From contig JBGSJG010000008.1 of assembly GCA_041742135.1 (NCBI GenBank), positions 96,518 through 160,517 of the forward strand: a DNA stretch of 64,000 bases, written 5' to 3'. The notes beneath the pieces are model-generated. The model saw only the letters and a list, made by a program, of their open reading frames with translations, was not told where the DNA came from and did no database searches. Position 1 is the first letter of the stretch. Each line of letters begins with the position of its first letter. This DNA is from Patescibacteria group bacterium. GTDB taxonomy: Bacteria > Patescibacteriota > Microgenomatia > UBA8517. Positions 46,250 to 63,921 of the stretch are shown piece after piece. Both the position numbers and the translations under genes were made by a program.

Positions 46250-46536
46250 ATAAAACAAAATTGATGGTTTTGATTTCTGTAATAGCCGCAGCTGCTCTGA
46301 TGGTGACAGTCGCGGTTGGCTCCAGTCTTTGGGGCTCTGAGCTTCATGAGCTGGAGAACGCTATTTCTCAACTTGAGGAAGAAAATAAAGTAACACAGGA
46401 AAAAATTGTCCAAGGAACTTCTTTGACGGCGCTGTATGAAATCCGCGAAGAGCTAGGATTTGCCAAACCTTCAAGAGTGATTTATATGGGGGATCATACA
46501 TCAGTTGCCCAAGCGCATAATGGAGCTTCGAATTAG
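46246..46536 (+). CDS. ftsL: FtsL-like cell-division membrane protein
   Basis: 96 aa. A single TM then a coiled-coil (LHELENAISQLEEENKVTQEK). In the canonical position between rsmH and ftsI. Confidence 0.5.
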   Translation: MNKTKLMVLISVIAAAALMVTVAVGSSLWGSELHELENAISQLEEENKVTQEKIVQGTSLTALYEIREELGFAKPSRVIYMGDHTSVAQAHNGASN

Positions 46537-48250: not shown

Positions 48251-48288
48251 TTAGACTGACTTGCGTGAAAAGTGTATAATTTGCACAC
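48251..48288 (+). promoter_or_regulatory. Putative internal promoter for murA with an extended -10 (TGTATAAT, 48273-48280) ending only 8 nt before the ATG, implying a leaderless or near-leaderless transcript
   Basis: ttagac (48251-48256), an 18-nt spacer, then tgTATAAT. No Shine-Dalgarno sequence between the -10 and the start codon at 48289. Confidence 0.35.
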
Positions 48289-49575
48289 ATGAATCTTCGC
48301 GTTTATGGCGGTACGGCGCTTTCCGGAGAAATTACTCCTTCAGGGAGTAAAAACGCTATAGTGGCGCTTCTTCCTTCAACTCTTCTGTTTGATAAACCAG
48401 TAACATTCACAAACGTCCCCGACATTACCGATGTAGGCAGACTTGTAAAAGTATTAACTGCGTTGGGTGGCAAAGTTGACTGGAATAAAGCAGAGAAGAA
48501 GATGGTTATAGATAACTCGAATGTATCCATGAAGGGTTTGGGAAAAGAAGAGGTCGGAAATATGAGGGGCACGGCACTTTTATGGGGGCCAATGTTGGCA
48601 CGTTTCAGAAGTGTAGCATTTGATGAACTTCCCGGAGGTTGTACATTAGGAGTTCGCCCGCTAAACCCTCATTACGATGCTTTTGAAAAATTGGGAGTTA
48701 AAGTTGACGCGAGCTTTAAAAGTACAAAAATGGATGCCGCAAACGCTCGCTCAGCTGACTTTTGGCTCACTGAAATGAGCCCAACCGTGACTGAGAACGT
48801 GATAATGTTTGCGACTTCGCTCCCCGGAAAAACAAGAATAACCGGTGCTGCTTCTGAGCCCAATGTTCAGGATCTCTGTGTCTTTTTAAATAAGTGCGGA
48901 GCAGATATCAAGGGAGTTGGCTCAAGTATTTTAGAGATCGAAGGCGGCAAGCCATTGTCTCCCGTGGAGCACAAAGTTATAAGCGACCATTACGAGATTG
49001 CAACTTTCCTTTCGCTCGCCGCGGCAACCGGAGGCGAAATTTCAATTAAGGATGCTATCCCTGAGCATTTTTCTTATATCAACCATATATTCTCGCGTTT
49101 TGGGGTTAATGTAATTTACGAGGGTACTACTGCAAAGATTGCCAGAAACTTAGAGCTTTCGATTCACTGCGAGAATGGACCTCTTCAAATAAAAGCTCAG
49201 CCATGGCCGGGATTACCAGTGGATTTACTTCCGATATTTATGCCACTGGCACTTGCCGCTCCTAAAAATGCAGCCCTTTTTCATAATTGGATGTATGAAT
49301 CTGGATTGTTTTGGACTTCAGAATTTTCAAAATTTGGTGCAAATGTTCTTCTGTGTGATCCTCATCGTGTGCTTATAACAGGCGGGCACAAACTTTACGG
49401 CAGTGAAATCGAAGCCCCATACATTATTCGAGCGGTGGTGGCCCTCATGATGGCAGCCATGATTGCTGAGGGTGAAAGCACAATACTAAACGCGGATGCA
49501 ATTCACCGGGGGCACCCGGACTTTGCTGAGAACTTAAAGAGTTTGGGTGCTAAAATCGAGGAAATTAATGGTTAA
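48289..49575 (+). CDS. murA: UDP-N-acetylglucosamine 1-carboxyvinyltransferase MurA
   Basis: 428 aa. SGSKNA, a catalytic Cys in LPGGCTLGVRP, and a conserved EPSP-synthase-like fold. Confidence 0.9.
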   Translation: MNLRVYGGTALSGEITPSGSKNAIVALLPSTLLFDKPVTFTNVPDITDVGRLVKVLTALGGKVDWNKAEKKMVIDNSNVSMKGLGKEEVGNMRGTALLWGPMLARFRSVAFDELPGGCTLGVRPLNPHYDAFEKLGVKVDASFKSTKMDAANARSADFWLTEMSPTVTENVIMFATSLPGKTRITGAASEPNVQDLCVFLNKCGADIKGVGSSILEIEGGKPLSPVEHKVISDHYEIATFLSLAAATGGEISIKDAIPEHFSYINHIFSRFGVNVIYEGTTAKIARNLELSIHCENGPLQIKAQPWPGLPVDLLPIFMPLALAAPKNAALFHNWMYESGLFWTSEFSKFGANVLLCDPHRVLITGGHKLYGSEIEAPYIIRAVVALMMAAMIAEGESTILNADAIHRGHPDFAENLKSLGAKIEEING

Positions 49576-52030
49576 ATCTTCTAAAGCTAAGCTTTATTTC
49601 ACGCCAAAGACGAAAGTACACTTCATGGGAATTGGTGGAAGTGGCATGTCCGCAGTTGCCATGCTTGCCAATGCAGCTGGCTACGAAGTAGATGGTTGTG
49701 ATCAGTCACCCGCGACACCGTATATGAAAGAGCTTGCTCAGATAAATATCAAAACTGGCCACTCAAAAGATCATGTAAAAGGAAAAATTTTGGTTATTAG
49801 CCCGGCGATCAGTTTTATTAAACCCACTCCAGACGAAGTTCGCGCGGCCAAAAAAGTTATAACTTGGCAGGAGCTTTTGGGAAAAGAAATCGTGCAAGAC
49901 AAGAGCGTTATTGCAGTAGCTGGAACTCATGGCAAGTCTACTACCACGGCCATGCTTGCCTTAATCTTTGAGCAGGCGAAGTTAGACCCCGGAGTTATGA
50001 TTGGCGCAAAAGTCCCACAGTGGAACAGCAACTTTCGAGTTGGTCAGGGTAAGAATTTTATCGTTGAAGCGGACGAATTTAATGACAATTTCCTAAATTA
50101 CTCCCCAGAGATAGCCATAATCAACAATATCGAGTTCGATCACCCTGATTATTTTAAAGACGAGCCTCAGCTCATAAATAGTTTTAAGAATTTTATTTCT
50201 CGTCTTAAAGGTAGAAAAATATTAATTTTTAATTCTGACTCGAAGATTTTGTCTGATTTAGTCAAAGCAGCTGATAAGGATATTACGCGTATTAGCTATA
50301 GTTTAATAGATGAAAGCGCAGACGTTTATGGAAAGATAGTTAAAAAATCGTTAGCAGAAACTCGCTTTTCAGTCGTTTCAAAAAAGCTAAATGTTAATTT
50401 TACTTTTACGCTTAAGTTGGCAGGGGACTACAATGTGTCAAATGCTTTGGGTGCAATTGCTGCGGCAGTTTCCTGTTCAATAGACAAAAGTACCATAAAC
50501 GCTTCCCTTTCTAGCTTTTATGGAATTGGTAGACGTATGGAATTACTTGGCAAACCTGCCGGGGTTTTTGTTTATGATGATTATGCTCATCACCCTACAG
50601 CAATAAGAGAAACTCTTAAAGCACTGAGGCAAAGACATCATAAATCAAGAGTTACTGCTGTGATTGAGCCTCACTCTTTTTCTCGTACAAAAGCACTTCT
50701 GAATCAGTATAAAGGGGTATTTGAAAACGCTGATCGCGTTATAGTAGCACCAATTTTTAAAGCTAGAGACTCAGCAAATTTTGGAATTAGTTCAAATTCA
50801 ATAGTTAAAGTAGTCACTCACGGCAACATCCATGCTGCAAAAACATTGCATGATGCCACCGAAATGGCATTAAAAGGAGTAAAGAAGGGTGATGTGATTA
50901 TTGTTATGGGTGCGGGGCAAAGTAACGTTATTGCTACAGATTTAGTCAAGGCACTGTCTTTAAAAATATATAAAAATTACTCGTTAAAGAAGCTAAACAC
51001 TTTCAGAGTAGATGTGAAGGCTAAGCAATTTGTGGATGTTGAATCCGAGTTGGCTCTTAAACGATTGCTCAGCGATAAAAAAGTTAGAGCTGAAAAAAGG
51101 CTAATTATCGGGGCTGCAGCAAATATCCTTTTTACAAAAGATTTTGATGGGTTAGTCATTAAAAACTCTATAAAGGGAATCAGTTTAATTAGTGAAAGTA
51201 AAAATTATGTTACTCTCGAGGTAGGATCTGGCGAGAGCTGGCATGAATTGGTTATGTATAGCGTTAAAAACGGATGGGCTGGTATTGAAAATTTAGTTTA
51301 CATCCCAGGACTTGTTGGTGCGGCTCCGGTGCAAAATATTGCAGCTTATGGCCAGAATTTCTCAGACGTGTTTGTTAGCCTTGACGCTATAGATACTAAA
51401 ACAGGCAAAAAGAAAGTTTTCAGTAAAGAGGACTGCATGTTTGGTTATAGAGATAGTTATTTTAAGTCAAAAGCTCCGGGTCGGTTTGTTGTCACAAAAG
51501 TTAGACTAAAGCTCGCAAAAACCGCTCATATTAATACTTCGTATTTTGAAACAGGTAAGACTTTTGCAAAAAATGTTTCACTTGAGCAAGAGTTAGCATT
51601 AATCGCAAAGCCACCTTATACAATTCACGACGTTGCAATGGCAGTTATGAGTATTCGCAAAAAGAAACTTCCTGAAGTCTCCGACGTAGGAACTGTTGGT
51701 AGTTTTTTTAAAAACCCTGTTATTACTAAAGAGAAATACTTAGCACTTAAAGAGGCAGATCCTGATTTGCAATCTTACCCAGTCGAAGACTTGAGGTACA
51801 CAAAAAAAGTAAACGGCGAGATGGTCAAAATCCCGGCCGCCAGACTTTTAGATACTCTAGGATGGAAAGGCAAAAAAATTGGCAAAGTGGGAACACACCC
51901 CACACAAGCGCTTGCTGTAGTTAATTACGGAGCCAAGCCTAAGGATATTTTGAAATTTACGAGACAGATGCAAAAGGCGGTACTGGATAAGTTTGGAATC
52001 GAGCTTGAGCCGGAGGTCGTAATTATATGA
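49547..52030 (+). CDS. murC/murB: Fusion protein: UDP-N-acetylmuramate--L-alanine ligase (MurC, residues about 1-470) fused to UDP-N-acetylenolpyruvoylglucosamine reductase (MurB, about 475-827)
   Basis: 827-aa single ORF. MurC motifs are HFMGIGGSGMSAVAMLA and AGTHGKSTTT. MurB motifs are YIPGLVGAAPVQNIAAYG, FGYRDSYFK, GSFFKNPV and a C-terminal FGIELEPEVVI. No stop between the domains. The probable start is the Met at 49568. Confidence 0.85.
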   Translation: MLKSRKLMVKSSKAKLYFTPKTKVHFMGIGGSGMSAVAMLANAAGYEVDGCDQSPATPYMKELAQINIKTGHSKDHVKGKILVISPAISFIKPTPDEVRAAKKVITWQELLGKEIVQDKSVIAVAGTHGKSTTTAMLALIFEQAKLDPGVMIGAKVPQWNSNFRVGQGKNFIVEADEFNDNFLNYSPEIAIINNIEFDHPDYFKDEPQLINSFKNFISRLKGRKILIFNSDSKILSDLVKAADKDITRISYSLIDESADVYGKIVKKSLAETRFSVVSKKLNVNFTFTLKLAGDYNVSNALGAIAAAVSCSIDKSTINASLSSFYGIGRRMELLGKPAGVFVYDDYAHHPTAIRETLKALRQRHHKSRVTAVIEPHSFSRTKALLNQYKGVFENADRVIVAPIFKARDSANFGISSNSIVKVVTHGNIHAAKTLHDATEMALKGVKKGDVIIVMGAGQSNVIATDLVKALSLKIYKNYSLKKLNTFRVDVKAKQFVDVESELALKRLLSDKKVRAEKRLIIGAAANILFTKDFDGLVIKNSIKGISLISESKNYVTLEVGSGESWHELVMYSVKNGWAGIENLVYIPGLVGAAPVQNIAAYGQNFSDVFVSLDAIDTKTGKKKVFSKEDCMFGYRDSYFKSKAPGRFVVTKVRLKLAKTAHINTSYFETGKTFAKNVSLEQELALIAKPPYTIHDVAMAVMSIRKKKLPEVSDVGTVGSFFKNPVITKEKYLALKEADPDLQSYPVEDLRYTKKVNGEMVKIPAARLLDTLGWKGKKIGKVGTHPTQALAVVNYGAKPKDILKFTRQMQKAVLDKFGIELEPEVVII

Positions 52031-53412
52031 AATCAATCAAAGGTGTCACTGATGACTCTAGAAAAGTTAAAAAAGGCTTTGTTTTTGTGGCAATAAAAGG
52101 AGAGCATTTTGATGGCAACGATTATATTTCAGAAGCTATCGATAATGGGGCGGCTGAAATTGTAAGCGAAAAGAAAATGCCGATAAACTGGGACTCTAAG
52201 GTCAATTACCGAAAGGTTGCCAATGCCCGTCGTGAGCTCTCGTTATTGGCTTGTGAATTTTACGCCAATCCTTCAAAAAAAATGACGGTTATTGGTGTTA
52301 CAGGGTCGGACGGAAAAACGACAACTTCCCATATGATTTATGAAGTTTTAAAAAAAGCTGGTAAGCCAGTGGGTTTGATTTCAACAATCTCGGCAAAGAT
52401 CAAAAATCGTGAAGTCGATACGGGCTTTCATGTTACAAATCCTGAGCCTCTAGAATTACAAAAACTGCTATCTCAAATGGTCAAATCAGGACTTGACTAT
52501 GTTGTTTTGGAGGTAACTTCGCATGGCATTGATCAAGAGCGAATTGCTGGAATCAATTTCGATTTGGCGGTTTTGACAAATATCACACACGAGCATCTTG
52601 ATTATCATAAAACTTTTAGTAAGTATCGGGATACCAAGCTTAGGTTGTTTTTGGATGCGAAAACTTCTGTCCTAAATAAAGATGATAAAAATTACGATTA
52701 TTTGAGTGGGAAAATTAAAAATAAAAAAATCTCTTATTCTTTGAATCAAGACGCAGATTTCACTCCTTCTACTCTTGAGCTTGATAAATTAATGGGCTTA
52801 TCACTTCCAGAAGTTGGTTCATACAATATTCAAAATGCTCTTGCTGCCGCGGCAACTGCCTCGGTACTCGGAGTTTCACTCAAAATAACTCAAGATGCTT
52901 TGGCAAAAATGCAATTGCCCAAAGGCAGGCTCCAGAGAATAAAAAACACAAAAGGAGTCAACCTGTACGTCGATTTTGCCCATACGCCAAATGCACTGCA
53001 GCAAGTTCTCGGGTTACTTAAAGAGCAAACGGAAGGCAAATTGATTGTCGTTTTTGGTTGCGCCGGAGAGCGAGACAAGCAAAAACGCTCAATGATGGCT
53101 AGAATTGCAACAGATATCTCTGATTTTTCAGTCTTTACGGCTGAAGACCCCAGAAGTGAAAAGATTGAAGATATCTTGGCGCAAATGGAATTAGGAGTTA
53201 AAAACAAAAAAGCTGCACGTTTCAAAATAGCCGAGCGGGGTGAGGCAATCAGTTTTGCCGTAAACGAGCTGTCAAAAGCCGGAGATACATTGGTCATAAC
53301 AGGTAAAGCGCACGAAAAAAGTATGGCTTATAATGGTATTGAATATCCATGGAGCGACTTTGAGGCAGTTGATATGGCGCTAAAGGGCAAGACTTTAAAA
53401 ATTAAAAGATGA
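52027..53412 (+). CDS. murE: UDP-N-acetylmuramoyl-L-alanyl-D-glutamate--2,6-diaminopimelate ligase MurE
   Basis: 461 aa. N-terminal DDSRKVKKGFVFVAIKGEHFDGNDYI, P-loop GVTGSDGKTTTS and a DNPR-like EDPR motif. Confidence 0.8.
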   Translation: MKSIKGVTDDSRKVKKGFVFVAIKGEHFDGNDYISEAIDNGAAEIVSEKKMPINWDSKVNYRKVANARRELSLLACEFYANPSKKMTVIGVTGSDGKTTTSHMIYEVLKKAGKPVGLISTISAKIKNREVDTGFHVTNPEPLELQKLLSQMVKSGLDYVVLEVTSHGIDQERIAGINFDLAVLTNITHEHLDYHKTFSKYRDTKLRLFLDAKTSVLNKDDKNYDYLSGKIKNKKISYSLNQDADFTPSTLELDKLMGLSLPEVGSYNIQNALAAAATASVLGVSLKITQDALAKMQLPKGRLQRIKNTKGVNLYVDFAHTPNALQQVLGLLKEQTEGKLIVVFGCAGERDKQKRSMMARIATDISDFSVFTAEDPRSEKIEDILAQMELGVKNKKAARFKIAERGEAISFAVNELSKAGDTLVITGKAHEKSMAYNGIEYPWSDFEAVDMALKGKTLKIKR

Positions 53413-54536
53413 AAAAAAATATTGCAGTCTGTTTCGGGGGAGTATCTCCCGAGCATGAAGTTTCCGTTATTACTGGCCTGCAGGTGATGGAGCAGATTGA
53501 CCGAGATTTATTTGAGCCATTTGCGATTTATTTTACCAAAGAAGGACTTCTTAAGTTTCAAGATATTAAAAAGCGACATGACTTTAAAGTCGATGGGGGA
53601 AAAATTGTGAATTTTGCCAAAGATGAAAAAGGCGTTTATTTTATTGGTAGCACTCCCCTAGCCAAGAGAGTATATGTAGACTCGGCATATCTTGCTTTTC
53701 ATGGAGGATATGGGGAAGCTGGGCCCGTTCAAGGCTTTTTTGAAACGCTTGAATTGCCCTTTACATCTCCGCCCTTGGAAGCCTCGGCGATATCTATGAA
53801 TAAGCAGCTGACTCGGCAGGTTTTGTCACAGAACACGATAAATGTTGTCCGGGGGGTTTCAGTTTTTTCGGATGATGTGCTCAAAGACCCCGATGTTACA
53901 ATGCAAAAAGTGAAGAAGGAAATTGGATTGCCCGCAATAATTAAGCCTGTACATTTAGGTAGCAGTATCGGAATTAATGTTGCCAAAAAAGAAGTGGAGC
54001 TTAAAAAGTTTTTACTAGAAGCGGCCCATGTTGATAGCGAGATTTTGGTAGAGAAGCTTCTTGTCAACTTCGTAGAATATAATTGCTCGGTACGCGCAGT
54101 TGACGGAAAACTTGAAGCAAGCGAAGTGGAGCGACCCATCAAGTCGGATGAGATCTTAAGCTTTGCCGATAAATACCAAAAGGGTGGAAATAAAAAAGCT
54201 GCAGGGATGGCGTCGCTTGTGCGGGAACTCCCAGCTAAAATTCCAGTAAGTCTTAAAGATAAAATTCAAAAAATTGCGCGTGAAGTATTTAAAGCTACTA
54301 GATGCAAAGGACTGGTTAGAATTGATTTTATGGTAACTAGTGATAACGAAGTCTATGTAACTGAAGTAAATCCAATTCCTGGATCGATGGCTTTTTATCT
54401 GTGGGAAGCAAGCGGAGTTAGTTTTACTAAGCAAATTACTGATTTAATTGAGCAAAGCATCGTTGATTTCAAGAGTAAAGTGGGGAAAAAACTAGATTAT
54501 CAAAGTGATATTGTCGAGAAGTTTGTAAAAGTTTAG
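53409..54536 (+). CDS. ddl: D-alanine--D-alanine ligase
   Basis: 375 aa. N-terminal IAVCFGGVSPEHEVSV, an ATP-grasp core, and C-terminal EVNPIPG. Confidence 0.85.
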   Translation: MKKNIAVCFGGVSPEHEVSVITGLQVMEQIDRDLFEPFAIYFTKEGLLKFQDIKKRHDFKVDGGKIVNFAKDEKGVYFIGSTPLAKRVYVDSAYLAFHGGYGEAGPVQGFFETLELPFTSPPLEASAISMNKQLTRQVLSQNTINVVRGVSVFSDDVLKDPDVTMQKVKKEIGLPAIIKPVHLGSSIGINVAKKEVELKKFLLEAAHVDSEILVEKLLVNFVEYNCSVRAVDGKLEASEVERPIKSDEILSFADKYQKGGNKKAAGMASLVRELPAKIPVSLKDKIQKIAREVFKATRCKGLVRIDFMVTSDNEVYVTEVNPIPGSMAFYLWEASGVSFTKQITDLIEQSIVDFKSKVGKKLDYQSDIVEKFVKV

Positions 54537-55738
54537 TAGTAATTATCTCCAAGCTCCGGTTGCATTAGGACAAGATACTCTTTGGGGCTAAAGTTTTTTT
54601 TGATAATTTCCCAAGCATCAGTCATGCCTTCTGCAAGTAGTACTTCTTGGCTAATTCCTTCCAAGACTTCGTTGTGAAGAACAGTTTTGCAAAGGACTAC
54701 TTGCGCCTTGGATTCGGCTAATATTTTGCCGTATTCGAAGTTGGCATCTTTGTTTTCGCGCCCCAACTCTGGTATTCCCGCAGTAACTACAATTAGTTTT
54801 TTCTTCATTTGTTTTGCCAACAAAAGTGCATTTTTAAGCGTGAACTTTGCTGTGGTAAAGCTTATGTTGTAGCTTTCGTCAATTGTCTCAAAACCGTGAA
54901 GATCAATGATGTTTCCGCGTCTGTCTGGTTTGGCAAGTTTTTTAGCAGTATCATCGACAATATCTTTAGGAATTTTCAAAGCCTTGGCAACTGCCAACGC
55001 ATATTCAAGATTAGATTCCTTGTCGGAAATTTTAATCGCCCCAGCTTTTGCGTAATTAAAAACTTCGTGAAGCGCGATTTTAAGCTTTGCCTTGCTGCCA
55101 AATCTTTCCAAATGTTGGTCCCCCACGTTTGTTAAAATTGCGATGTCGGGCGGAGTTATCGCGCAACTTCTTTTAATTTCTCCGATAAAGTACGTATCCA
55201 TTTCGACTATTAAAATTTCAGTAGTTGTGTTTAAATTTTTTAGAATCCACGCAGCAATTCCTGTCGGCGTATTAATGTTGCCCGGAATCATCTGGGTTTT
55301 AAAGTTATAGCGAACCAGTTCGTAAATATAATTTTTGGTCGTGGTTTTGCCAAAGCTTCCTGCGACGGCTATAACTTTCCCGTTATATTTGTTAGCAAAA
55401 TGTTTTGCCGCGGATTTTTGGATGCCATGCTTAATACGCTCGTAAATCGGGTTTAAAACAATGTTTGCGAGAGCAACCCAAAAAGGAATCAAAAGAACCG
55501 TGAAAATAATCGTCAAGTATGATCCCAGAATGGTGAGCACTACGCTAAGTGCCAACGTAACCCTCACTCTTGAAGTTAAAACCAGCTTTTGCCGCTTTTG
55601 AAAGCCTCTTTTTAAAAAAAATCTGGAGATTAATTTTAAGTAGCGTTTAGTATCATACTCTTCGAGTTGAAGAAGGTACAAAAAGTCAAAGAAGGGGAAA
55701 ATTTTGTCAATCATATAAATTTGTTTATGAGTCCCCAA
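54533..55738 (-). CDS. murF: MurF-like Mur ligase with a hydrophobic (2-TM) N-terminal region in place of the usual N-terminal domain, encoded antisense to the dcw cluster
   Basis: 401 aa. P-loop VIAVAGSFGKTTTK, GNINTPTG (cf. MurF GNxNNxIGxP), TNVGDQHLERFGS and IDESYN (cf. MurF DDSYNAN). N-terminal LALSVVLTILGSYLTIIFTVLLIPFWVALANIVL is predicted membrane-spanning. Confidence 0.55.
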   Translation of the reverse strand: MGTHKQIYMIDKIFPFFDFLYLLQLEEYDTKRYLKLISRFFLKRGFQKRQKLVLTSRVRVTLALSVVLTILGSYLTIIFTVLLIPFWVALANIVLNPIYERIKHGIQKSAAKHFANKYNGKVIAVAGSFGKTTTKNYIYELVRYNFKTQMIPGNINTPTGIAAWILKNLNTTTEILIVEMDTYFIGEIKRSCAITPPDIAILTNVGDQHLERFGSKAKLKIALHEVFNYAKAGAIKISDKESNLEYALAVAKALKIPKDIVDDTAKKLAKPDRRGNIIDLHGFETIDESYNISFTTAKFTLKNALLLAKQMKKKLIVVTAGIPELGRENKDANFEYGKILAESKAQVVLCKTVLHNEVLEGISQEVLLAEGMTDAWEIIKKNFSPKEYLVLMQPELGDNYY

Positions 55739-56367
55739 AGTAAGTTTGGATTTTCAAACTGAATGTTGTGGCCGCTATTTTGAATTTCCTCAAACCTTGA
55801 GTGCTTTATAAGTGAATGCATTTTTTGCCCTATGGCAATAGGTGCTGTTTTATCTTTGGATCCCCAGATAATTAGCGTTGGGCATTTTATTTCTGGCAGT
55901 TGTTTTGTCATGTCGTAGTTAACAGATTTTTTGAAAACCTCGCCCAAGCCTTTTTCTATAGCTTCCTTGTACTCCATGTTTTTAGTTATCGATCTTTTCT
56001 TGGGAAAGAGTCGCTTGCCAACTTTATGTAAAACGATTTTAAGACGAATTTTTAAGGGTGGCATATACAAAAGAGGCGCGGCGACAAGAATCAGCTTTTT
56101 GACAAGCTCCGGATGATCAATGGCAACTTGTGCTGCAATTTTACCTCCAAAAGAATGGCCAACAAGCACAATGGAGTTAAGATTATTTTTCTTAATTTTT
56201 TTTGCTACCCACTGGGCATATTCTTTGATTCCCCAGTCTGAAGAAATTAGTTTTTCATTCCCAAATCCAGGAAGGTCCATTAGAAGAACGTCTCTATCAA
56301 ACTTTTGTGCAAAGCCTTGCCACGCTTCTTTTGAATGCCCCCATCCATGGAGGATTACTATTGGCAT
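55711..56367 (-). CDS. Alpha/beta-hydrolase fold protein (esterase/lipase-like)
   Basis: 218 aa. N-terminal HGWGHS oxyanion region and a nucleophile elbow VGHSFGG. Overlaps the MurF-like gene by 28 nt. Confidence 0.7.
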   Translation of the reverse strand: MPIVILHGWGHSKEAWQGFAQKFDRDVLLMDLPGFGNEKLISSDWGIKEYAQWVAKKIKKNNLNSIVLVGHSFGGKIAAQVAIDHPELVKKLILVAAPLLYMPPLKIRLKIVLHKVGKRLFPKKRSITKNMEYKEAIEKGLGEVFKKSVNYDMTKQLPEIKCPTLIIWGSKDKTAPIAIGQKMHSLIKHSRFEEIQNSGHNIQFENPNLLWGLINKFI

Positions 56368-56424
56368 GTCCTTATTTTACTACAAACAACTTGTGCCGTG
56401 AAAAGTTGGGCAGAGATTGATATA

Positions 56425-57495
56425 ATGAGTGGTACGATGAATACTCCGTCAGTTCTGCCTTTAGCTCTCGGGCTCGTAATAGTGTCGTTTTTTGTTTCCA
56501 GCTCACTGATTGTTCCTTTTATCAATTTGCTTTATAGAATTAAGCTTGTAAGAAGGAGAGAAGGTGAGTTTGGGGGGAAGACAAAATCTCTTTTTGACAA
56601 ACTTCACGACAAAAAAGCAGGAACGCCCATAGGTGGAGGAATTATCTTAATTTTTATTACCACGATATTATTTTTTGTCATCCTTCCTTTTGCCGCAAAA
56701 ATGGGACTTTTTATTCATACTTCTTTTAACCTGCGAGACGAGCTTGTGGTAATTTTTGTAACCTTTGTTTCGTTTGGGCTTTTGGGGCTACTTGATGACG
56801 TGGTCAAGATTTTTGGTAAACCGAAAGCTGGCAAAATTGGCGCAGTTTTTGGTATGACCAAGCTTCAGAAATTTGCTCTACAGTGGATTTTGGGGCTTAT
56901 CATTGGATTCCTGATTTATAATAATCTTGGAATTAGAATCCTTCATATCCCACTTTTTGAAATAGTTATTAATCTTGGTCCTCTTTATATTCCATTTGCT
57001 GCTTTTGTGATTGTGTTTTTTGCGAACGCTTTTAATCTTACTGACGGCTTGGACGGCTTGGCATCGGGACTTTTGATGATTTATCTGTTTGCCTACATAA
57101 TCATCGCAATTGAGCACTTGGACACTCCACTGTTTATGTTTATTTCAATTTGGCTTGGGTCGATTATTGCTTTTCTTTATTTCAATATTCCGCCTGCCAG
57201 AATTTTTTTGGGCGACACCGGGGCTCTAAGCTTTGGGGCAATGATCGCGGTTATTGGGCTTATGATCGGAAACGTGGCTACACTGTTTATTATCGGCGGA
57301 TTATTTGTGTTTGAAGCAGCTTCTTCTTTGATTCAGATGGCTGGCTGGAAGTATCTTAAGCGCGGCATTTTTCCTTTGGCGCCGATTCACCATGCCCTTG
57401 AAGCCATGGGTTGGGAAGAGCCAAAAATTGTAATGCGTGCTTGGCTGGCAGCTTTAATGCTGGCTGTCTTCGGCCTTTGGTTGACTACTATATGA
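56425..57495 (+). CDS. mraY: Phospho-N-acetylmuramoyl-pentapeptide transferase MraY
   Basis: Polytopic. DD motif region NAFNLTDGLDGLA and GDTGALSFGAMIAVIG. Start set at the internal Met; the ORF-track start at 56335 would overlap the convergent hydrolase gene. Confidence 0.85.
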   Translation: MSGTMNTPSVLPLALGLVIVSFFVSSSLIVPFINLLYRIKLVRRREGEFGGKTKSLFDKLHDKKAGTPIGGGIILIFITTILFFVILPFAAKMGLFIHTSFNLRDELVVIFVTFVSFGLLGLLDDVVKIFGKPKAGKIGAVFGMTKLQKFALQWILGLIIGFLIYNNLGIRILHIPLFEIVINLGPLYIPFAAFVIVFFANAFNLTDGLDGLASGLLMIYLFAYIIIAIEHLDTPLFMFISIWLGSIIAFLYFNIPPARIFLGDTGALSFGAMIAVIGLMIGNVATLFIIGGLFVFEAASSLIQMAGWKYLKRGIFPLAPIHHALEAMGWEEPKIVMRAWLAALMLAVFGLWLTTI

Positions 57496-57498
57496 AAA

Positions 57499-58614
57499 AT
57501 GGCTGCCAGACGAAAGAAAAATTTTCGATTCAAAACTCAAAACACTGGTGTCTTCGATAGACAACTATTTTGGCTTACGGTGCTTCTAACAGTTATTGGC
57601 CTTCTTGCAGTCTCTGATGCTTCGGGACCTCAAGCTATGGCAGCTTTTGGCAGCCCTTTTTATTTTGCACGGCAACAGATTATGTGGGCGGTGGTTGGTT
57701 TTGTTGGCCTTATTGTTGCTTCTCGAATTCATTATTCTTATTGGAAGAAAGTGGCTTTTATAATCGGCATATCAGCAGTTATTTTACTACTGGTAGTTCT
57801 GATCCCGGGAGTTGGCACGAAAGCTTTGGGGGCACGCAGGTGGCTTAATCTTGGGCCAATGGCGCTTCAGCCTTCAGAAGTTGCCAAGTTTGCAGTCATA
57901 GTAGTCATTGCACGTCTCTTGGACGAAAAATACCCGTTTAAATATCCAGTGGCTCTAATCGGGGGGATTAGCATGCTTGTAATGCTTCAGCCAGATTTGG
58001 GAACGACGATTGTAATTGCGGGAGCTGGCCTATTGCAACTATTTGTCGGCGGAATGCCCCTGGCTTCTTTGTTTGCTACTATTGCCTCGGGAGCAGTTGC
58101 AACTGGATTTCTAATTTTGACTTCCGAGTATCGCCGCGCGCGCCTTATGACTTTTTTGGAAAGCGGCAGTGATCCATTGGGAAACTCGTATCATATGAAG
58201 CAAATCTTGATAGCACTTGGATCGGGAGGTTTATTTGGTGTAGGTATTGGCCAATCACGCCAAAAACACCTTTTTTTGCCTGAAAGTGCAAGCGATTCGA
58301 TTTTTGCGGTTGTCGCTGAAGAAACAGGTTTTGTTGGCGCTGCTCTTCTTGTTATTCTTTTGGCTTATTTTATTATTAAAATCTTGAAAGTGGCGGTTAA
58401 TGCACCTGACAATTTTTCCAAATTACTAGCCTCGGGGATTGCCATTTGGTTATGTCTTCAGATGTTTCTTAATATCTCTTCTGTTGTTGCAGTTACACCT
58501 TTGACTGGCATTCCACTTCCATTTTTTAGTTATGGAGGCTCAAGCCTTGTGATGATTCTCTTCGGAGTGGGTATAATACTAAATATCTCCCGCTATGCCA
58601 AAGACAAAAAATAA
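57499..58614 (+). CDS. ftsW: SEDS-family cell-division peptidoglycan polymerase FtsW
   Basis: 371 aa. About 10 TM helices with C-terminal PLTGIPLPFFSYGGSSLV. Confidence 0.85.
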   Translation: MAARRKKNFRFKTQNTGVFDRQLFWLTVLLTVIGLLAVSDASGPQAMAAFGSPFYFARQQIMWAVVGFVGLIVASRIHYSYWKKVAFIIGISAVILLLVVLIPGVGTKALGARRWLNLGPMALQPSEVAKFAVIVVIARLLDEKYPFKYPVALIGGISMLVMLQPDLGTTIVIAGAGLLQLFVGGMPLASLFATIASGAVATGFLILTSEYRRARLMTFLESGSDPLGNSYHMKQILIALGSGGLFGVGIGQSRQKHLFLPESASDSIFAVVAEETGFVGAALLVILLAYFIIKILKVAVNAPDNFSKLLASGIAIWLCLQMFLNISSVVAVTPLTGIPLPFFSYGGSSLVMILFGVGIILNISRYAKDKK

Positions 58615-59704
58615 TTTAGTTTTAACCGGTGGCCACGCAGCAACAACTGCTATGGCTTTGGTCGAAGCTCTCAAAGAAAAACTGTCCAAGAACGCAACAA
58701 TATCGTGGATAGGAACAAAAAATGCTGTGGAAGGGAAAAAGGGCCTCACCTTGGAATTTAAAACTTTTCATGCTTTGGGAATTAACTGCTATGCAATTAC
58801 AACAGGAAGAGTGCAGAGGAAGTTCACAAGACATACAATCTTTTCGCTTTTAAAAATTCCTTTGGGTTTTGTCCATGCTTTGTGGCTAATATTAAAAATT
58901 CGTCCTGACGCGATTGTTTCATTTGGAGGTTTTGCTGCTTTCCCTGTTGTTGTGTGGGGCAGGCTATTGGGCGTGCCTGTGGTGATACACGAGCAGACAA
59001 CGGCAATTGGTATGGCCAATAAATATTCAGTACCATTTGCTGCTAAAGTCGCAATTTCTCGTGACGAGAGCCGCAAGTATTATCCCAAAAATAAAATAGT
59101 TCTCACAGGCAATCCTGTGCGTAAGGCCTTTTTTGAAATTCCTGCAAAAGCTAAAATGGCCGTGCCACCAACAATATATGCAACTGGAGGCTCGCGTGGG
59201 TCTCAGAATTTTAATGCAAAGCTGCTTGAAATTTTGCCAAGCGTTCTTGATGAGTTTAAAGTAATCCACCAATGTGGCGATTTTGATTATGAATTATTTA
59301 CGACCTTTAAAGATTCACTTATGGGATTCAAAAAAGATCACTATGAAGTTCATTCTACTATCGACCCACTCAAAGTCCCACAAATACTTAAAATTGCCGA
59401 CATTGTCATTGGGCGTGCAGGGGCCAATACCGTCTCTGAGGTAATCGCCGCGCGCCGGCCAGCAATTTTTATCCCCATCCCTTGGAGCCAAAATGACGAG
59501 CAGACCAAAAATGCCAAACTTATGGAGGCTGAAGGCATGGCGATTGTTCTTAATCAAAACGATATGAGCTCGGAATCATTTTTGAAAGCAATACACCAAA
59601 TTAAGGCTGATTATGGAAAGTACGCACTTCACAGCGATTCGGATTTGCGTGAACTGGATCGACAGGCCGCAGAAAAACTAGCGCTCTTGGCATTATCACT
59701 ATGA
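58595..59704 (+). CDS. murG: UDP-N-acetylglucosamine--N-acetylmuramyl-(pentapeptide) pyrophosphoryl-undecaprenol GlcNAc transferase MurG
   Basis: 369 aa. N-terminal LTGGHAATTAMAL and the GT28 C-terminal ATGGSRGSQNFN. Confidence 0.85.
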   Translation: MPKTKNNLVLTGGHAATTAMALVEALKEKLSKNATISWIGTKNAVEGKKGLTLEFKTFHALGINCYAITTGRVQRKFTRHTIFSLLKIPLGFVHALWLILKIRPDAIVSFGGFAAFPVVVWGRLLGVPVVIHEQTTAIGMANKYSVPFAAKVAISRDESRKYYPKNKIVLTGNPVRKAFFEIPAKAKMAVPPTIYATGGSRGSQNFNAKLLEILPSVLDEFKVIHQCGDFDYELFTTFKDSLMGFKKDHYEVHSTIDPLKVPQILKIADIVIGRAGANTVSEVIAARRPAIFIPIPWSQNDEQTKNAKLMEAEGMAIVLNQNDMSSESFLKAIHQIKADYGKYALHSDSDLRELDRQAAEKLALLALSL

Positions 59705-60357
59705 AAAGAAAAATTGGCGCAGCAGTTCTTGTCCTCGTAATCATAATTTTGAGTTTAGTTTTTTTGTCAAAGGCATTTACGATTAATTCGATTCAATGCA
59801 CGAGCGAAGGCTCTTGTGATGGTGAGGTTGTAGGTTTACTGGAATCTCAGAAAGGCAAAAACTATTTTGCAGCCAAAAAAAGCTTAGGCGACTCCTTGTC
59901 CTCGCACCCAAAAGTTGAAAGTTACGAGATTCATTTTGCTGTTCCTTCTACTTTAAGCCTTTCTTTAATTCAAAAAAAAGAGGCCTTTGGTTTAAAGTTT
60001 GCTCAAAATCGCTATCTTTTGTTTGACGAAGATGCAAGCCTTATTGGTGAGTCGGAAAGTACCGATCTGCCTTACGCCACAGTTTTGGGAGTTCCCCTTG
60101 ATAACGAGTTAGTTTTTGGGGTTAAATTAATGCTTGAGTTGGTTAAGTACTATGGAGCAGAAAATATGAGAGTGGACAAAAATGGCTTTTACGCGGTTTT
60201 GCCAAACCGTGGAGAAGTAACGTTTCCGCTTTCGGGAGACGTGGACGTCGTTTTGGGCTCTTTAGAGGCTGTTCTTTCACAGTTGAATCGCTCGCCGCAA
60301 AATCATACAATTACGATAGATCTACGGTATAAAAATCCAGTAGTTTATGGAATATGA
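59701..60357 (+). CDS. ftsQ: FtsQ/DivIB-like cell-division protein (short)
   Basis: 218 aa. N-terminal TM, then a POTRA-like region. In the canonical position between murG and ftsA. Confidence 0.5.
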   Translation: MKRKIGAAVLVLVIIILSLVFLSKAFTINSIQCTSEGSCDGEVVGLLESQKGKNYFAAKKSLGDSLSSHPKVESYEIHFAVPSTLSLSLIQKKEAFGLKFAQNRYLLFDEDASLIGESESTDLPYATVLGVPLDNELVFGVKLMLELVKYYGAENMRVDKNGFYAVLPNRGEVTFPLSGDVDVVLGSLEAVLSQLNRSPQNHTITIDLRYKNPVVYGI

Positions 60358-61634
60358 ATAAATCTCGGTTAATCGCAGGTGTAGATATTGGCTCTTCAAA
60401 AATAACCACGCTAATTGCTCAAGTGGTTGTGGAAGAAATTACGCAGGATACTTCTGTAAACATTATTGGTGTTTCAAATACCAACTCAAAAGGCGTTAAA
60501 AAGGGCCAGATTGTAGACATTGAGGAGGCCGTGGAGGCAATTATCGCTTCAGTCGAAGCCGCTGAGCGCATGGCGGGGTTTAACTTGGACCGAGCTTTCA
60601 TTTCTGTCGGTGGGGCACATGTCGCTTCCCAAAACTCAAAGGGTGTTGTGGCGGTGTCGAGCAGTAACGGTGAAGTTAACGATGAAGATATTGCGCGCGT
60701 TATTGATGCCGCTCGAGCTGTGAGCCATCCCGCATCTCGTGAAATTATCCATGTAATCCCCAGAGAATTTATCGTTGATGGCGAGGCGGGTGTGCGAGAC
60801 CCAGTTGGCATGAGCGGAGTCCGTCTTGAAGTGGAAACTCATATTGTTACTGCCAGCTCAGCCGCGCTTAAGAATTTAAGTAAAAGTGTAAACGAAGTGG
60901 GGATTGAAGTTGACGAAATGGTGTTCGCCGGGCTTGCGAGTAGCTACGCAACTCTAACACCAACAGAAAAAGAGCTTGGCTGCGCGTTAATTGATATTGG
61001 GGCTGGAACAACTTCTATTGCTGCATTTGTGGACGGAGCCTTGGCATATTCGGGGTCCCTCCCTGTTGGGGCCAGAAACGTAACTAACGATTTGGCCATA
61101 GGCCTTCGAGTTTCTTTGGATAACGCCGAAAAAATAAAACTAAGTTTAAATAAAAAATCCAAACTTACAGACAATCATGGAAAAGAAATTGTGGAGATTG
61201 AAGAAACAGGAAGTGAAGATCCTAAGAAAATATCAAAGCGAACTATCACGGAGGGGATAATTAAGCCTCGCTTGAATGAAATATTTTCGATGGTGAAAAG
61301 TGATTTGGATAAGGCGGGACTGATTAATAAAATCCCTTCAGGTGCGATTCTTACTGGTGGTGGGGCAATGACTTTGGGAGTCGAAGAAGCGGCAAAGCGA
61401 ATTCTATCCCTTCCTACTCGCGTGGCAATTCCGGGCGGAGTTCGAGGACTAATTGATGATATCGAGGATCCACGTTTTGCGACGGCTGTAGGACTTATTT
61501 TGTACGGCCTGTCTCAGGGTGATGTTGGTAAGAAAAAAAGCCCGATGCCGTCACTTCCAAAGAAGATGAAATTGCCCGGTGGAGGAGGAGCTCTCAACAA
61601 AATTATCGAATCAATTCGCGATCTTCTGCCTTGA
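60354..61634 (+). CDS. ftsA: Cell-division protein FtsA
   Basis: 426 aa. Actin-like ATPase, N-terminal LIAGVDIGSSKITTL and a phosphate-2 LIDIGAGTTSIA. Confidence 0.85.
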   Translation: MNKSRLIAGVDIGSSKITTLIAQVVVEEITQDTSVNIIGVSNTNSKGVKKGQIVDIEEAVEAIIASVEAAERMAGFNLDRAFISVGGAHVASQNSKGVVAVSSSNGEVNDEDIARVIDAARAVSHPASREIIHVIPREFIVDGEAGVRDPVGMSGVRLEVETHIVTASSAALKNLSKSVNEVGIEVDEMVFAGLASSYATLTPTEKELGCALIDIGAGTTSIAAFVDGALAYSGSLPVGARNVTNDLAIGLRVSLDNAEKIKLSLNKKSKLTDNHGKEIVEIEETGSEDPKKISKRTITEGIIKPRLNEIFSMVKSDLDKAGLINKIPSGAILTGGGAMTLGVEEAAKRILSLPTRVAIPGGVRGLIDDIEDPRFATAVGLILYGLSQGDVGKKKSPMPSLPKKMKLPGGGGALNKIIESIRDLLP

Positions 61635-61674
61635 CGTTTAGTATCAATCTGCTACACTGCCGTTAAGATTAACT

Positions 61675-62847
61675 ATGGCACTCGTTAAACCCGATGCTTC
61701 AAGACTTGCCAAAATTAAAGTTGTTGGAGTAGGTGGTGGAGGAGGAAATGCCGTAGGCTCCATGGTAGCTGGCAACGAAATTTCAGGTGTTGAGTTTATT
61801 GTGTTAAACACAGATGCTCAGGTGCTTCTCGCAAATGCAGCTCCGACAAAACTTCAAATTGGTGAAAAGCTCACTCGAGGTCTGGGAGTAGGTGGCAATC
61901 CTGAAGTGGGAGGCCAAGCCGCAGAAGAATCCGCAGAAAAAATTAAAGAAATATTAGTAGACTCTGATATGGTTTTTGTTACTGCTGGTATGGGTGGGGG
62001 AACAGGAACTGGAGCCTCGCCCGTTATTGCACGAATGGCCCGAGAAGCTGGGGCACTGACCGTTGCTATTGTGACAAAGCCATTTGCCTTCGAAGGGGCA
62101 CGCAGGCAACTTCTGGCAGAAGAGGGAATCGAACAACTTCGCGAAGAAGTCGACACTCTCATTGTTATTCCAAATCAGCGACTTATGGATGTCATTGACC
62201 GAAAAATGACTTTGGTTGAAGCGTTTAAGGTAGCCGATGGAGTCTTGGGCCAAGCAGTTACAGGAATTGCTGAAATTATAACCACTCCGGGATTAGTCAA
62301 CGTAGACTTTGCCGATGTTAAGACAATCATGAAAGACGCTGGCTCGGCACTTTTGGGAATTGGTCAGGGAGTTGGCGAAAATCGAGCTCAGATGGCAGCG
62401 CGTGCTGCTGTATCTTCTCCGCTTTTGGATCTTTCAATTGATGGTGCTCGTGGAGTCTTGTTTAATATTTCAGGCGGCCCAGACATGACAATGTTTGAGG
62501 TTGATGAAGCGGCTCGAATAATTTCAAGCTCCGCTGATCCCGATGCAAATATTATTTTTGGATCAGTCATCAAAGAAGATCTTGCAGATCAGGTGAAAAT
62601 TACAGTTATCGCTACAGGTTTTGATGAAACTCAGGCGAGAATAAGCAAGATGCATAAAGGTGAAGTTCTCCCGGAGCCAGCTCCTCGATTCCAAGGGGTG
62701 GTAAGCGAAAGCCCGAAAGAGGAAGACCGTTTGGCTCAAGAGCAAAAACCGCAAGAACAAGTTTATGCGGCCGCAGAAGAGGCGGAGGAAACCGATGACT
62801 CGGGAGAAGACTTCGACATCCCGGCATTTTTAAGAAAGGTACACTAA
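61675..62847 (+). CDS. ftsZ: Cell-division GTPase FtsZ
   Basis: 390 aa. Tubulin signature GGGTGTG ([14 protein letters not shown]), N-terminal [12 protein letters not shown], and an acidic C-terminal tail with DIPAFLR. Confidence 0.95.
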
Positions 62848-62883: not shown

Positions 62884-63297
62884 ATGAGAGGAAAGGAATA
62901 TGAAGAGCAAATGCCGGACATTCACGATCAACGCGGAGATCTTTTTAGAGTCGAGAGTACAATTTATGCTACGACCGAAGCAAATAAAAGGCTGGCTGAC
63001 TTATATCCGCAAGTAACTCCTGAAACACCATTAGTACTTGATGCTTACGAGAGAAGGGAAATTGCTCATGTCTCAGTAGCCTTGAATGAAAGTCCTCAAC
63101 TGTTAAGACGAGTCGTAACTGATGCCCTCACTTATGCTACGAATCCTGAAGACACGGCATTTTGTCGACATGGGGCGGAGGACCACGCGGTATTTGATGA
63201 AGCCGTAGAAAGGGTCAAAGATAGTGTTGGAGACGGAACTGCCAATTTTTCAGTTCAGTCGCATAAGGTTGAAGCTAGGACAGAAATTGGCCCTTAG
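62884..63297 (+). CDS. Hypothetical protein
   Basis: 137-aa ORF downstream of ftsZ. Acidic, no recognisable motifs. Confidence 0.3.
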   Translation: MRGKEYEEQMPDIHDQRGDLFRVESTIYATTEANKRLADLYPQVTPETPLVLDAYERREIAHVSVALNESPQLLRRVVTDALTYATNPEDTAFCRHGAEDHAVFDEAVERVKDSVGDGTANFSVQSHKVEARTEIGP

Positions 63298-63408: not shown

Positions 63409-63921
63409 ATGAAGGCAAGGCGACTCCGTGCTTTGGCTGAAGATGAAGGTGTAGCGCAAGCAATGCTGACCGCAACTTATTCGGGATTAAGTATTGACGA
63501 AACCTTTGACATATTTGCTGAACCGAACTTCCAGCGCAAGATGAAAGAGGCTAGAGTTCGTATCCCAACGCGCAATCGACAAGGAGATGCTTCAGTATTA
63601 AAGAATTTGCGCGATTCTTTGGTGGTTGTTACGTCTGCAGGCGTGTTTCCGAAATACAGCCTAGAAGCGTTTTCGAATGGGCTATCAACACTAGAGCAAG
63701 GTAGGTATATTACTCCTGAAGAGGCTAGGACTCTCTTTGTTCCAGATCGCGTAGATAAGATCGCCAGAGGACGAGCAGTTTTTTCTGGGCTAAGTGAGGC
63801 GGCGCAAAGAGGAATTGGGCCTAAATTACATTCCGTGGCACGCGTAAATTATTTGTCTGAAAGAAGTAATATTATTACGACAAATTTAGTTACAGGTTAT
63901 TTGTTAGTTGAACCAAATTAG
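63409..63921 (+). CDS. Hypothetical protein
   Basis: 170-aa ORF with no recognisable motifs. Confidence 0.3.
   Translation: MKARRLRALAEDEGVAQAMLTATYSGLSIDETFDIFAEPNFQRKMKEARVRIPTRNRQGDASVLKNLRDSLVVVTSAGVFPKYSLEAFSNGLSTLEQGRYITPEEARTLFVPDRVDKIARGRAVFSGLSEAAQRGIGPKLHSVARVNYLSERSNIITTNLVTGYLLVEPN

Follow-up and report, generated by a model that had tools for sequence, protein, structure and literature searches.

A probable membrane-anchored MurF subfamily encoded with a serine hydrolase beside ddl in Patescibacteria and other phyla

We analysed a 64,000-nt stretch of DNA from a Patescibacteria group bacterium (Microgenomatia; UBA8517; contig JBGSJG010000008.1, positions 96,518 to 160,517 of the forward strand), which is called the window here. 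Between ddl and mraY of its division and cell wall (dcw) cluster lie two genes on the minus strand, one for a ligase of the Mur family and the other for a serine hydrolase. We interpreted the ligase to be, probably, the MurF of this lineage in a membrane-anchored form, designated tmMurF. The two genes, the region upstream of them and the parts of the ligase are listed below (aa, amino acids; pLDDT, predicted local distance difference test score).

54533–55714, minus strand: Mur ligase (tmMurF), 393 aa plus stop; likely ATG start at 55714, the open reading frame (ORF) extending to a TTG at 55738
55711–56367, minus strand: alpha/beta-fold serine hydrolase, 218 aa, first gene of the two-gene operon
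56368–56437: divergent intergenic region, 70 bp, with promoter-like hexamers on both strands
55568–55714, minus strand: conserved basic N-terminal segment of the ligase, aa 1–49; three short helices, pLDDT 87–96
55430–55567, minus strand: hydrophobic helical hairpin, aa ~50–95; two predicted membrane helices at the position of MurF domain 1
54800–55384, minus strand: central ATP-binding Mur ligase domain, aa ~111–305; PF08245, aligned to MurF 3zl8, 2am1 and 4qdi
54536–54799, minus strand: compact C-terminal Mur ligase domain, aa ~306–393; strands and helices at 306–384 in the model

For comparison, about 85 loci of roughly 20 kb each were collected. They included L001–L042 from Patescibacteria and L043–L082 from other phyla.

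On the minus strand, the junction of the two genes reads ...AAA TTT ATA TGA TTG ACA..., in which the TGA stop of the hydrolase and the ATG of the ligase form an ATGA overlap. A database protein (P0001) identical to the ligase is 393 aa long. Because of this overlap and the 393-aa database copy, the true start of the ligase is most likely the ATG of codon 9 (M9, at 55714), giving 393 aa. The 401 aa given in the original prediction was correct for the length of the ORF, but not for the protein from this probable start. The hydrolase and the ligase are predicted to be translationally coupled. At its other end the ligase gene converges on ddl, and the two genes overlap by 4 nt at their stop codons. 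The motifs quoted earlier, GNINTPTG, TNVGDQHLERFGS and IDESYN for the ligase and GHSFG for the hydrolase, were all found.

On the other side of the pair, mraY probably starts at the ATG at 56438, without overlapping the hydrolase gene; MraY proteins of relatives are 329–355 aa long. The mraY ORF is open for 100 nt upstream of this probable start, giving an apparent overlap with the hydrolase start. The divergent region between the two genes contains promoter-like sites at 56398–56426 on the plus strand (extended −10 TGATATAAT, ending at 56426) and at 56402–56374 on the minus strand. The number of sites in a promoter/terminator scan was not above the expectation from shuffled sequences, and these hexamers are only suggestive.

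The ligase was compared with the NCBIfam profiles. It scored 125.6 bits with murF (TIGR01143), followed by murD (44.7), murC (30.7), MurT (25.8), murE (22.1) and mpl (18.3). The match to TIGR01143 began at profile position 63. The same profile was the top family for six other members from four phyla, and the matches started at positions 58–65 of 418. The ligases tested from outside the Candidate Phyla Radiation (CPR) also had MurF as the best match, with 162–228 bits from profile position ~63–65. The MurD score is to be compared with a cut-off of 211.95 (the genuine MurD of the relative L003 scored 467 bits), the Mpl score with one of 388.7 and the MurT score with one of 800. No match to PF21799 was found in the MurD test or to DUF1727 in the MurT test, and the partner is an Abhydrolase_1 protein, not a GatD glutaminase. 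CapB/PgsB, FolC and cyanophycin synthetase gave no NCBIfam match at E <= 0.01.

A family profile of 13 homologues, searched against the Protein Data Bank (PDB), gave 122 bits with MurF 3zl8, 40 with MurD and 38 with MurT. An AlphaFold2 model of the ligase, built on 114 homologues, had a pLDDT of 95.5 and a predicted template modelling score (pTM) of 0.89. The top 10 Foldseek matches to this model were all MurF (E down to 9e-18, TM-score 0.65). The MurF-like character seen in the original prediction was therefore supported by NCBIfam, the PDB profile search and Foldseek alike. The hidden Markov model classification proposed with it, against MurD, MurE, MurF, Mpl, CapB, MurT and FolC, placed MurF at the top, with no CapB or FolC match. 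Public records name these proteins automatically as "MurF" or "Mur ligase family protein".

The sole Pfam match in the ligase was PF08245 (Mur_ligase_M; 74.5 bits, residues 125–305 of the 401-aa ORF). The central domain contains the P-loop G119-S-F-G-K-T-T-T, E171, D173, D199-Q-H201 and Leu215; the P-loop (G119-S-F-G-K-T-T), E171 and H201 were invariant in 82 loci and 114 homologues. The C-terminal part contains the entry motif D279-E-S-Y-N283, G313-I-P-E-L-G318 and a conserved terminal PELxDxYY. D279, S281, Y282, N283 and G313-I-P-E-L-G318 were invariant in the alignments and matched the motifs of 3zl8, 2am1 and 4qdi. PF02875 was below threshold in the window ligase and was detected in many homologues.

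The N-terminus was different. PF01225, the N-terminal UDP-binding domain, was matched by the murC and murE of the window, but not by the ligase. Residues 1–109 were entirely helical in the model (helices 2–5, 8–17, 22–32, 48–68 and 73–109), which indicated that the canonical alpha/beta domain 1 is absent. The first 49 residues have the consensus FPFxDFLYLLQLEEYxxxRY...R..QKR.KL..T.R, with D10, F11, Y13, L15, Q16, E19, Y20, R24, Y25, R36, T47 and R49 near-invariant in two alignments. Across the family this segment carries ~11.6 Lys plus Arg versus 4.8 Asp plus Glu, and it is predicted to be cytoplasmic.

The hydrophobic segments of the window ligase were placed at residues 44–91 by Kyte-Doolittle analysis, with a peak of 2.54. 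For the family as a whole, the hairpin is 30–60 aa long, its Kyte-Doolittle value averages 1.8 and the median number of charged residues is one. The hydrophobic stretch is 30–31 residues long in most Patescibacteria relatives, 39 in the subgroup of the window and up to 60 elsewhere. With 30–31 residues, a hairpin does not have the length for two full membrane spans; it may be re-entrant. Positive charge precedes the hairpin and cytoplasmic ligase chemistry follows it, which suggests an in-hairpin-in topology. The original prediction had hydrophobic helices over roughly the first 100 residues in place of the N-terminal domain. The loss of the domain and the helices were borne out, but only residues ~50–95 are hydrophobic and residues 1–49 are basic.

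In a search of 1.8 billion representative proteins with the N-terminal 110 aa, the only matches were to the N-termini of ligases of ~430–480 aa, with one exception. This exception (P0308, 738 aa; L083 179–2395 and L084 83–2299) has a transglutaminase-core (Cys-peptidase fold) domain ahead of the QLEEY segment, hairpin and ligase. At its loci ddl converges on the fusion gene, murA is next, and the contig ends 178 nt upstream. The Q-x-E-x-Y core was also present in other phyla, as QIEEY in Anaerolineae, QREHY in Acidimicrobiia, QLENY in Clostridia and QQNRY in Erysipelotrichaceae. The ligases of other phyla are 443–562 aa long, and their N-termini are likewise hydrophobic. At L069 (9911–11137) the LLQLEEY segment, the hydrolase and the convergent ddl are kept, and there is almost no hydrophobic stretch. 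A mis-called start as the source of the hydrophobic N-terminus was ruled out by the conservation of this N-terminus in more than 100 homologues, which indicated that it is genuine.

Canonical MurF has a conserved lysine ~14 residues beyond the catalytic His (ETK-MEI in 3zl8, RAK-SEI in 4qdi, KGK-MQI in 2am1), and MurD and MurE carry its counterpart in carbamylated form. The MurF lysine aligns with position 215 of the ligase, where the following residues were found.

CPR loci L001–L042 plus the window: Leu or Ile, 42 of 42
120 homologues from the full-length family: Leu or Ile in 119, Ser in 1
Loci L043–L082 of other phyla: Lys, 39 of 40
Clostridia homologues: Lys, 120 of 120
PDB MurF sequences: Lys, 3 of 3

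Position 173, two residues past the Mg-binding Glu171, showed a Gly-to-Asp change coupled to position 215. Asp173 was combined with a residue other than Lys215 in 173 of 319 sequences, and Gly or Ala173 with Lys215 in 138. There were eight exceptions to this coupling, six of which carry Glu174 instead; a small third type reads 'ELGEY...EF' with Glu174. Asp199 was largely specific to the Leu type, canonical MurF and the non-CPR membrane forms having Pro, Ser or Asn there. The Lys type and the Leu type are both present within Patescibacteria. We infer that, in the clade of the window, an encoded carboxylate may replace the carbamate of the modified lysine.

Full-length members of the ligase family numbered hundreds of proteins, in Woesebacteria, Roizmanbacteria and other Microgenomates. 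At the 42 Patescibacteria loci, the hydrolase and ligase genes lay on one strand with ddl convergent, almost without exception, and this module persisted even where the rest of the dcw cluster was not nearby. The hydrolase stop overlapped the ligase start region, and the 3' ends of ligase and ddl overlapped by 4–40 nt. At nearly all of the 40 loci of other phyla (Anaerolineae and other Chloroflexota, Acidimicrobiia, gut Clostridia and Erysipelotrichaceae), hydrolase, ligase and ddl were present, here on one strand. The module lay outside any dcw cluster in Acidimicrobiia and Anaerolineae. Clustering of the neighbouring genes across the loci revealed no further conserved gene beyond the module.

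The original prediction had described the pair as an antisense island. A recent insertion was rejected, as the GC content of the pair was similar to that of its flanks and the arrangement is kept in about 40 Patescibacteria genomes. The comparison with related genomes that had been proposed for the antisense pair showed its arrangement to be conserved across the Patescibacteria loci, and the order hydrolase, ligase beside ddl recurred across several phyla. The module is old and tightly packed, not an inserted island.

Some GenBank titles of the metagenome-assembled genomes in this set were apparently mislabelled (L005, L017, L025, L032, L034, L037 and many 'uncultured Candidatus Saccharibacteria' records). 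Bacterial dcw genes of the Microgenomates type and this ligase were present on contigs whose titles read 'Woesearchaeota archaeon', 'uncultured Gammaproteobacteria' or 'Saccharibacteria'.

In the window, L001–L006, L085 and L086, the pair is situated between murE/murD/ddl and mraY. L085 has the order mraZ-rsmH-ftsL-ftsI-murA-...-murC-murB-murE-murD-(HAD)-alr-ddl-[ligase, hydrolase on the opposite strand]-mraY-ftsW-murG. L086 has, on one strand, ...murA-murC-murB-murE-murD-murI-hydrolase-ligase-...-mraY-ftsW-murG. The ligases of both carry the Q-x-E-x-Y segment. In L031, from a complete Dojkabacteria genome, murA, murB, murC, murD and murE lie beside the module. Spore-forming gut Clostridia have murC-hydrolase-ligase-ddl-(udk)-murE-mraY-murD-ftsW-murA, with no other MurF there. 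No second MurF-like gene was found in the ~85 loci.

The hydrolase is a compact member of Abhydrolase_1/6 (Abhydrolase_1, PF00561, 113.7 bits) and has no signal peptide. The HG oxyanion motif (LHGW), the nucleophile S72 (GHSFGG), D172 and H200 were invariant in 41 and 29 orthologues, across phyla. The serine hydrolase of the GHSFG type that had been predicted thus has an intact Ser-Asp-His triad. None of the NCBIfam subfamilies reached its cut-off (the best was an EstV-type lipase, 125 versus 300), and the nearest PDB entries were generic esterases, BioH and PHB depolymerase.

Where the stretch upstream of the ligase was readable, it began with the hydrolase gene at every locus except two. At L012 and L077, no upstream hydrolase was detectable. 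A loss of the hydrolase in L001 was also considered and rejected; the scaffold has a gap of Ns there, and the C-terminal end of the gene is still present. This near-universal, translationally coupled linkage argues for a function shared by the hydrolase and the ligase. The hydrolase may edit or trim the stem peptide or the dipeptide, or may have a structural part in a complex. The fusion of a transglutaminase-like domain in one relative hints at a hydrolytic activity of the partner.

The identity and architecture of tmMurF are based on sequence, structural model and synteny. The pair fills the murF slot in complete clusters in which the other Mur ligases are present, and we therefore read the ligase as MurF. 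The constant link to ddl, the supplier of the second substrate of MurF, points the same way. The ligase is most likely the MurF of this lineage, from a membrane-anchored subfamily that would add D-Ala-D-Ala to the MurNAc-tripeptide stem.

In the mechanism that we propose, Ddl would make D-Ala-D-Ala. The catalytic domains of the ligase would face the cytoplasm, with the hairpin tethering them to the membrane. In an ATP-dependent reaction, tmMurF would attach the dipeptide to the tripeptide stem and pass the product straight to MraY, whose gene is its neighbour. The part of domain 1 would be taken by the basic juxtamembrane segment, which would bind the diphosphate end of the substrate. Leu215 would stand in place of the lysine of the Mg2+/acyl-phosphate site, and Asp173 with Asp199 would probably supply the missing carboxylate. 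The hydrolase would probably work with the ligase or on the same substrate, by editing, by trimming or in a complex. MurD would most likely be encoded elsewhere in the genome.

Several points weigh against this interpretation. The lysine of canonical MurF is a leucine (Leu215) in the window ligase. Its 125.6 bits are below the curated MurF cut-off of 288.6, and the other members, with 111–228 bits, are all below it. Nothing in the textbook MurF reaction calls for a hydrolase, yet one is universally linked to the ligase. UDP-MurNAc-tripeptide is an assumed substrate, as the ligase lacks the UDP-binding domain of the solved MurF structures. The counts of murF cover loci of ~20 kb, and a canonical murF could lie elsewhere, notably in Acidimicrobiia and Anaerolineae. 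The placing of Asp173 in the Mg2+ site and of the N-terminal segment near the active site are proposed contacts.

An unlikely alternative is that tmMurF acts after MraY and adds D-Ala-D-Ala to a lipid-linked precursor (undecaprenyl-PP-MurNAc-tripeptide; lipid I/II-tripeptide). On this view, the lost domain and the membrane module with its juxtamembrane arginines would reflect adaptation to a substrate bound to the membrane; MurT/GatD, a lipid II enzyme without domain 1, would be a parallel. In its favour, domain 1 is gone and the conserved hairpin is preceded by invariant Arg and Lys; the architecture is kept across phyla, mraY is immediately beside the operon in many loci, and there is a second-enzyme partner, as in MurT/GatD. 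On the other hand, the near absence of a hydrophobic stretch in L069 suggests that membrane insertion is not essential, the hairpin has only 30–31 residues in most Patescibacteria members, and the similarity to MurT is weak (25.8 bits). MraY moreover is known to prefer the pentapeptide substrate. A fuller version, with a membrane MurF working on lipid-linked tripeptide after MraY in complex with a stem-editing hydrolase, and with an encoded Asp that replaces the CO2-dependent carbamyl-lysine in CPR, in several phyla, is given a similarly low probability.

It is rather doubtful that the module is an accessory system for salvage or editing beside a canonical MurF encoded elsewhere. The hydrolase would in that case trim damaged or recycled stems at the membrane, for instance from tetrapeptide to tripeptide, and the ligase would add D-Ala-D-Ala made by Ddl again. 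Such a role would suit the linkage of a triad-intact hydrolase to the ligase in all but two readable loci, the location of the module outside the dcw cluster in Acidimicrobiia and Anaerolineae, and the relative in which a transglutaminase-like domain is fused to the N-terminus of the ligase. It is not what would be expected from the lack of a second MurF-like gene in the loci compared, or from the clusters of L085, L086, L001/L002 and the window, where the pair sits in the murF slot with no other murF. Small CPR genomes, furthermore, rarely keep redundant paralogues.

It is very improbable that the ligase is an amide ligase of the Mur fold with no connection to peptidoglycan, for example a membrane-anchored enzyme of the CapB/PgsB type or one like FolC. 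CapB/PgsB, a membrane-associated poly-gamma-glutamate synthetase, likewise has the Mur ligase fold, and a large surface-glycan cluster lies upstream in the window. We rejected this assignment because no such family was matched in NCBIfam at E <= 0.01, MurF was best by sequence, profile and fold, and the gene is always beside ddl and often within dcw clusters.

The last alternative concerns murD, for which the other genes of the cluster are needed. The dcw cluster spans 44984–62847. The ORF list and the Pfam and NCBIfam scans agreed with the original prediction that mraZ to ftsZ are on the plus strand except for the two minus-strand genes between ddl and mraY. It also had mraY ending at 57495 and ftsW starting at 57499, and these coordinates were confirmed.

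44984–45418, plus strand: mraZ
45419–46249, plus strand: rsmH
46246–46536, plus strand: small ftsL-like ORF, assigned by position alone; no Pfam match
46505–48250, plus strand: ftsI
48289–49575, plus strand: murA
49547–52030, plus strand: murC-murB fusion, 827 aa
52027–53412, plus strand: murE (MurE 467 bits, above cut-off); 3' end overlaps the ddl start
53409–54536, plus strand: ddl, D-alanine--D-alanine ligase (Dala_Dala_lig_N and _C)
56438–57495, plus strand: mraY (Glycos_transf_4), ORF open from 56335
57499–58614, plus strand: ftsW (FTSW_RODA_SPOVE), 4 nt after mraY
58595–59704, plus strand: murG
59701–60357, plus strand: ftsQ-like, assigned by position alone; no Pfam match
60354–61634, plus strand: ftsA
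61675–62847, plus strand: ftsZ

The fusion ORF scored 383 bits with MurC over residues 23–465 and 359 bits with MurB over residues 473–827. In the close relatives L001/L002, murC and murB are separate genes. The best NCBIfam families of ddl were D-Ala--D-Ala ligases (235 and 227 bits), with the Van-type ligases behind.

No murD was found in the 64 kb, as had been predicted. A tblastn search with the Mur ligases of the window and a Woesebacteria MurD returned only murC, murE and this ligase; the MurD query showed weak similarity to murE. Neither murD nor an ATP-grasp substitute was found in the Pfam scans of the other 40 large ORFs. In the window, L001 and L002, murE is joined directly to ddl, and murD is absent from the clusters of L001/L002. 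We interpreted this junction as the site of the missing murD and alr, because both lie there in L085. The alr (alanine racemase) of L085 is accompanied by a HAD hydrolase gene, and the L086 cluster includes genes for a glutamate racemase (murI), a FemAB-family transferase and a DegT aminotransferase. None of these additional peptidoglycan genes is in the dcw cluster of the window, and alr and murI were found nowhere in its 64 kb.

In relatives, murD takes several forms. L003/L004 have a MurE-MurD fusion of 912 aa alongside this ligase, L009 and L010 have murD between mraY and murE, and MurD-MurB fusions of ~765 aa were found in P0121, P0140, P0192 and others. Gene placement in these clusters is fluid (murC-murB, murE-murD and murD-murB fusions), and murD has probably been relocated elsewhere in the genome of the window.

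That the ligase replaces MurD by adding D-Glu, or is bifunctional, would account for the lack of murD in the window and in the L001 and L002 clusters, but was rejected as scarcely credible, since it matches MurD poorly (44.7 bits, cut-off 212; MurF, 125.6), the family coexists with bona fide murD in L003, L004, L009, L010, L031, L035, L085 and L086, and the ligase is coupled to ddl, the source of the substrate of MurF. The suggestion that it covers an unusual step to offset the missing murD is likewise unlikely, as relatives with the same ligase also have murC, murD and murE.

Two ORFs downstream of ftsZ, at 62884–63297 and 63409–63921, had no Pfam match. Upstream of the dcw cluster, positions 1–42000 of the window are occupied by a very large surface-glycan cluster, unusually big for a small CPR genome. 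It contains ~15 glycosyltransferases (GT1, GT2, GT4 and TcdA/TcdB-like DXD type), six methyltransferases, a DegT aminotransferase, a pyruvyl transferase, a hexapeptide acyltransferase, a sugar-1-P nucleotidyltransferase, a Bac_transf priming transferase, DUF4012 and an ABC-2 exporter pair. Its membrane proteins are two of the PMT_2 type and one of the Wzy_C type.

The closest known relative of tmMurF, taken as the probable MurF, is canonical MurF (3ZL8 of T. maritima, 4QF5/4QDI of A. baumannii and 1GG4 of E. coli; TIGR01143, COG0770). The two share the P-loop, the Mg-binding Glu and the His, the DxSYN and GxxELG motifs, the linkage to ddl and mraY and the murF slot. Unlike canonical MurF, tmMurF has the basic QLEEY segment and the hydrophobic hairpin in place of the alpha/beta UDP-binding domain, an obligate upstream hydrolase and a score below the cut-off. 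In the clade of the window, Leu takes the place of Lys, and Asp173 and Asp199 are new. The central domain is ~50 residues shorter in the short forms of tmMurF.

MurT/GatD, the lipid II isoglutaminyl synthase of Staphylococcus and Streptococcus (6GS2, 6H5E, 6FQB), also has a Mur fold without the UDP-binding N-terminal domain. It too functions at the membrane stage, and its gene shares an operon with that of a hydrolytic partner; the analogy is functional only. In contrast to MurT, tmMurF lacks DUF1727, and its partner is an alpha/beta hydrolase instead of a glutamine amidotransferase; its similarity to MurT amounts to 25.8 and 38 bits in the two profile comparisons. We know of no membrane anchor in MurT.

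A ddl-murF operon is found in Bacillus subtilis and other Firmicutes. There, too, the genes for Ddl and for the ligase that adds the dipeptide are neighbours, separate from murE-mraY, and the Clostridia members of tmMurF have the same arrangement. The tmMurF module differs in the order of ligase then ddl (convergent in CPR), in the extra hydrolase gene and in the membrane anchor of the ligase. CapB/PgsB shares only the fold and the membrane association with tmMurF, without a family match; its context is capBCA instead of hydrolase-ligase-ddl, and tmMurF carries MurF-specific motifs.

In the full-text literature, we found nothing on a membrane-anchored MurF, on a hydrolase-MurF-Ddl module or on MurF in Microgenomates, Woesebacteria or Dojkabacteria. 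A paper on Chloroflexota named TIGR01143 only as one of its search profiles. The architecture of tmMurF and the hydrolase-ligase-Ddl set seem to be previously undescribed.

MurF is an essential, soluble textbook enzyme and an antibiotic target. The tmMurF subfamily spans Patescibacteria, Chloroflexota, Actinomycetota and Bacillota. Because all members are below the TIGR01143 cut-off, MurF will probably be recorded as absent when the pathways of these lineages are reconstructed automatically. If tmMurF is their sole MurF, the TIGR01143 and KEGG cut-offs would wrongly give "MurF missing", and the cytoplasmic steps of cell-wall synthesis would be linked to the membrane steps in a physically different way in these bacteria. 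The exchange of a carbamylated lysine for Asp would then be a natural experiment on the mechanism of Mur ligases, and the members from gut Clostridia may be easier to express and test than the CPR proteins.

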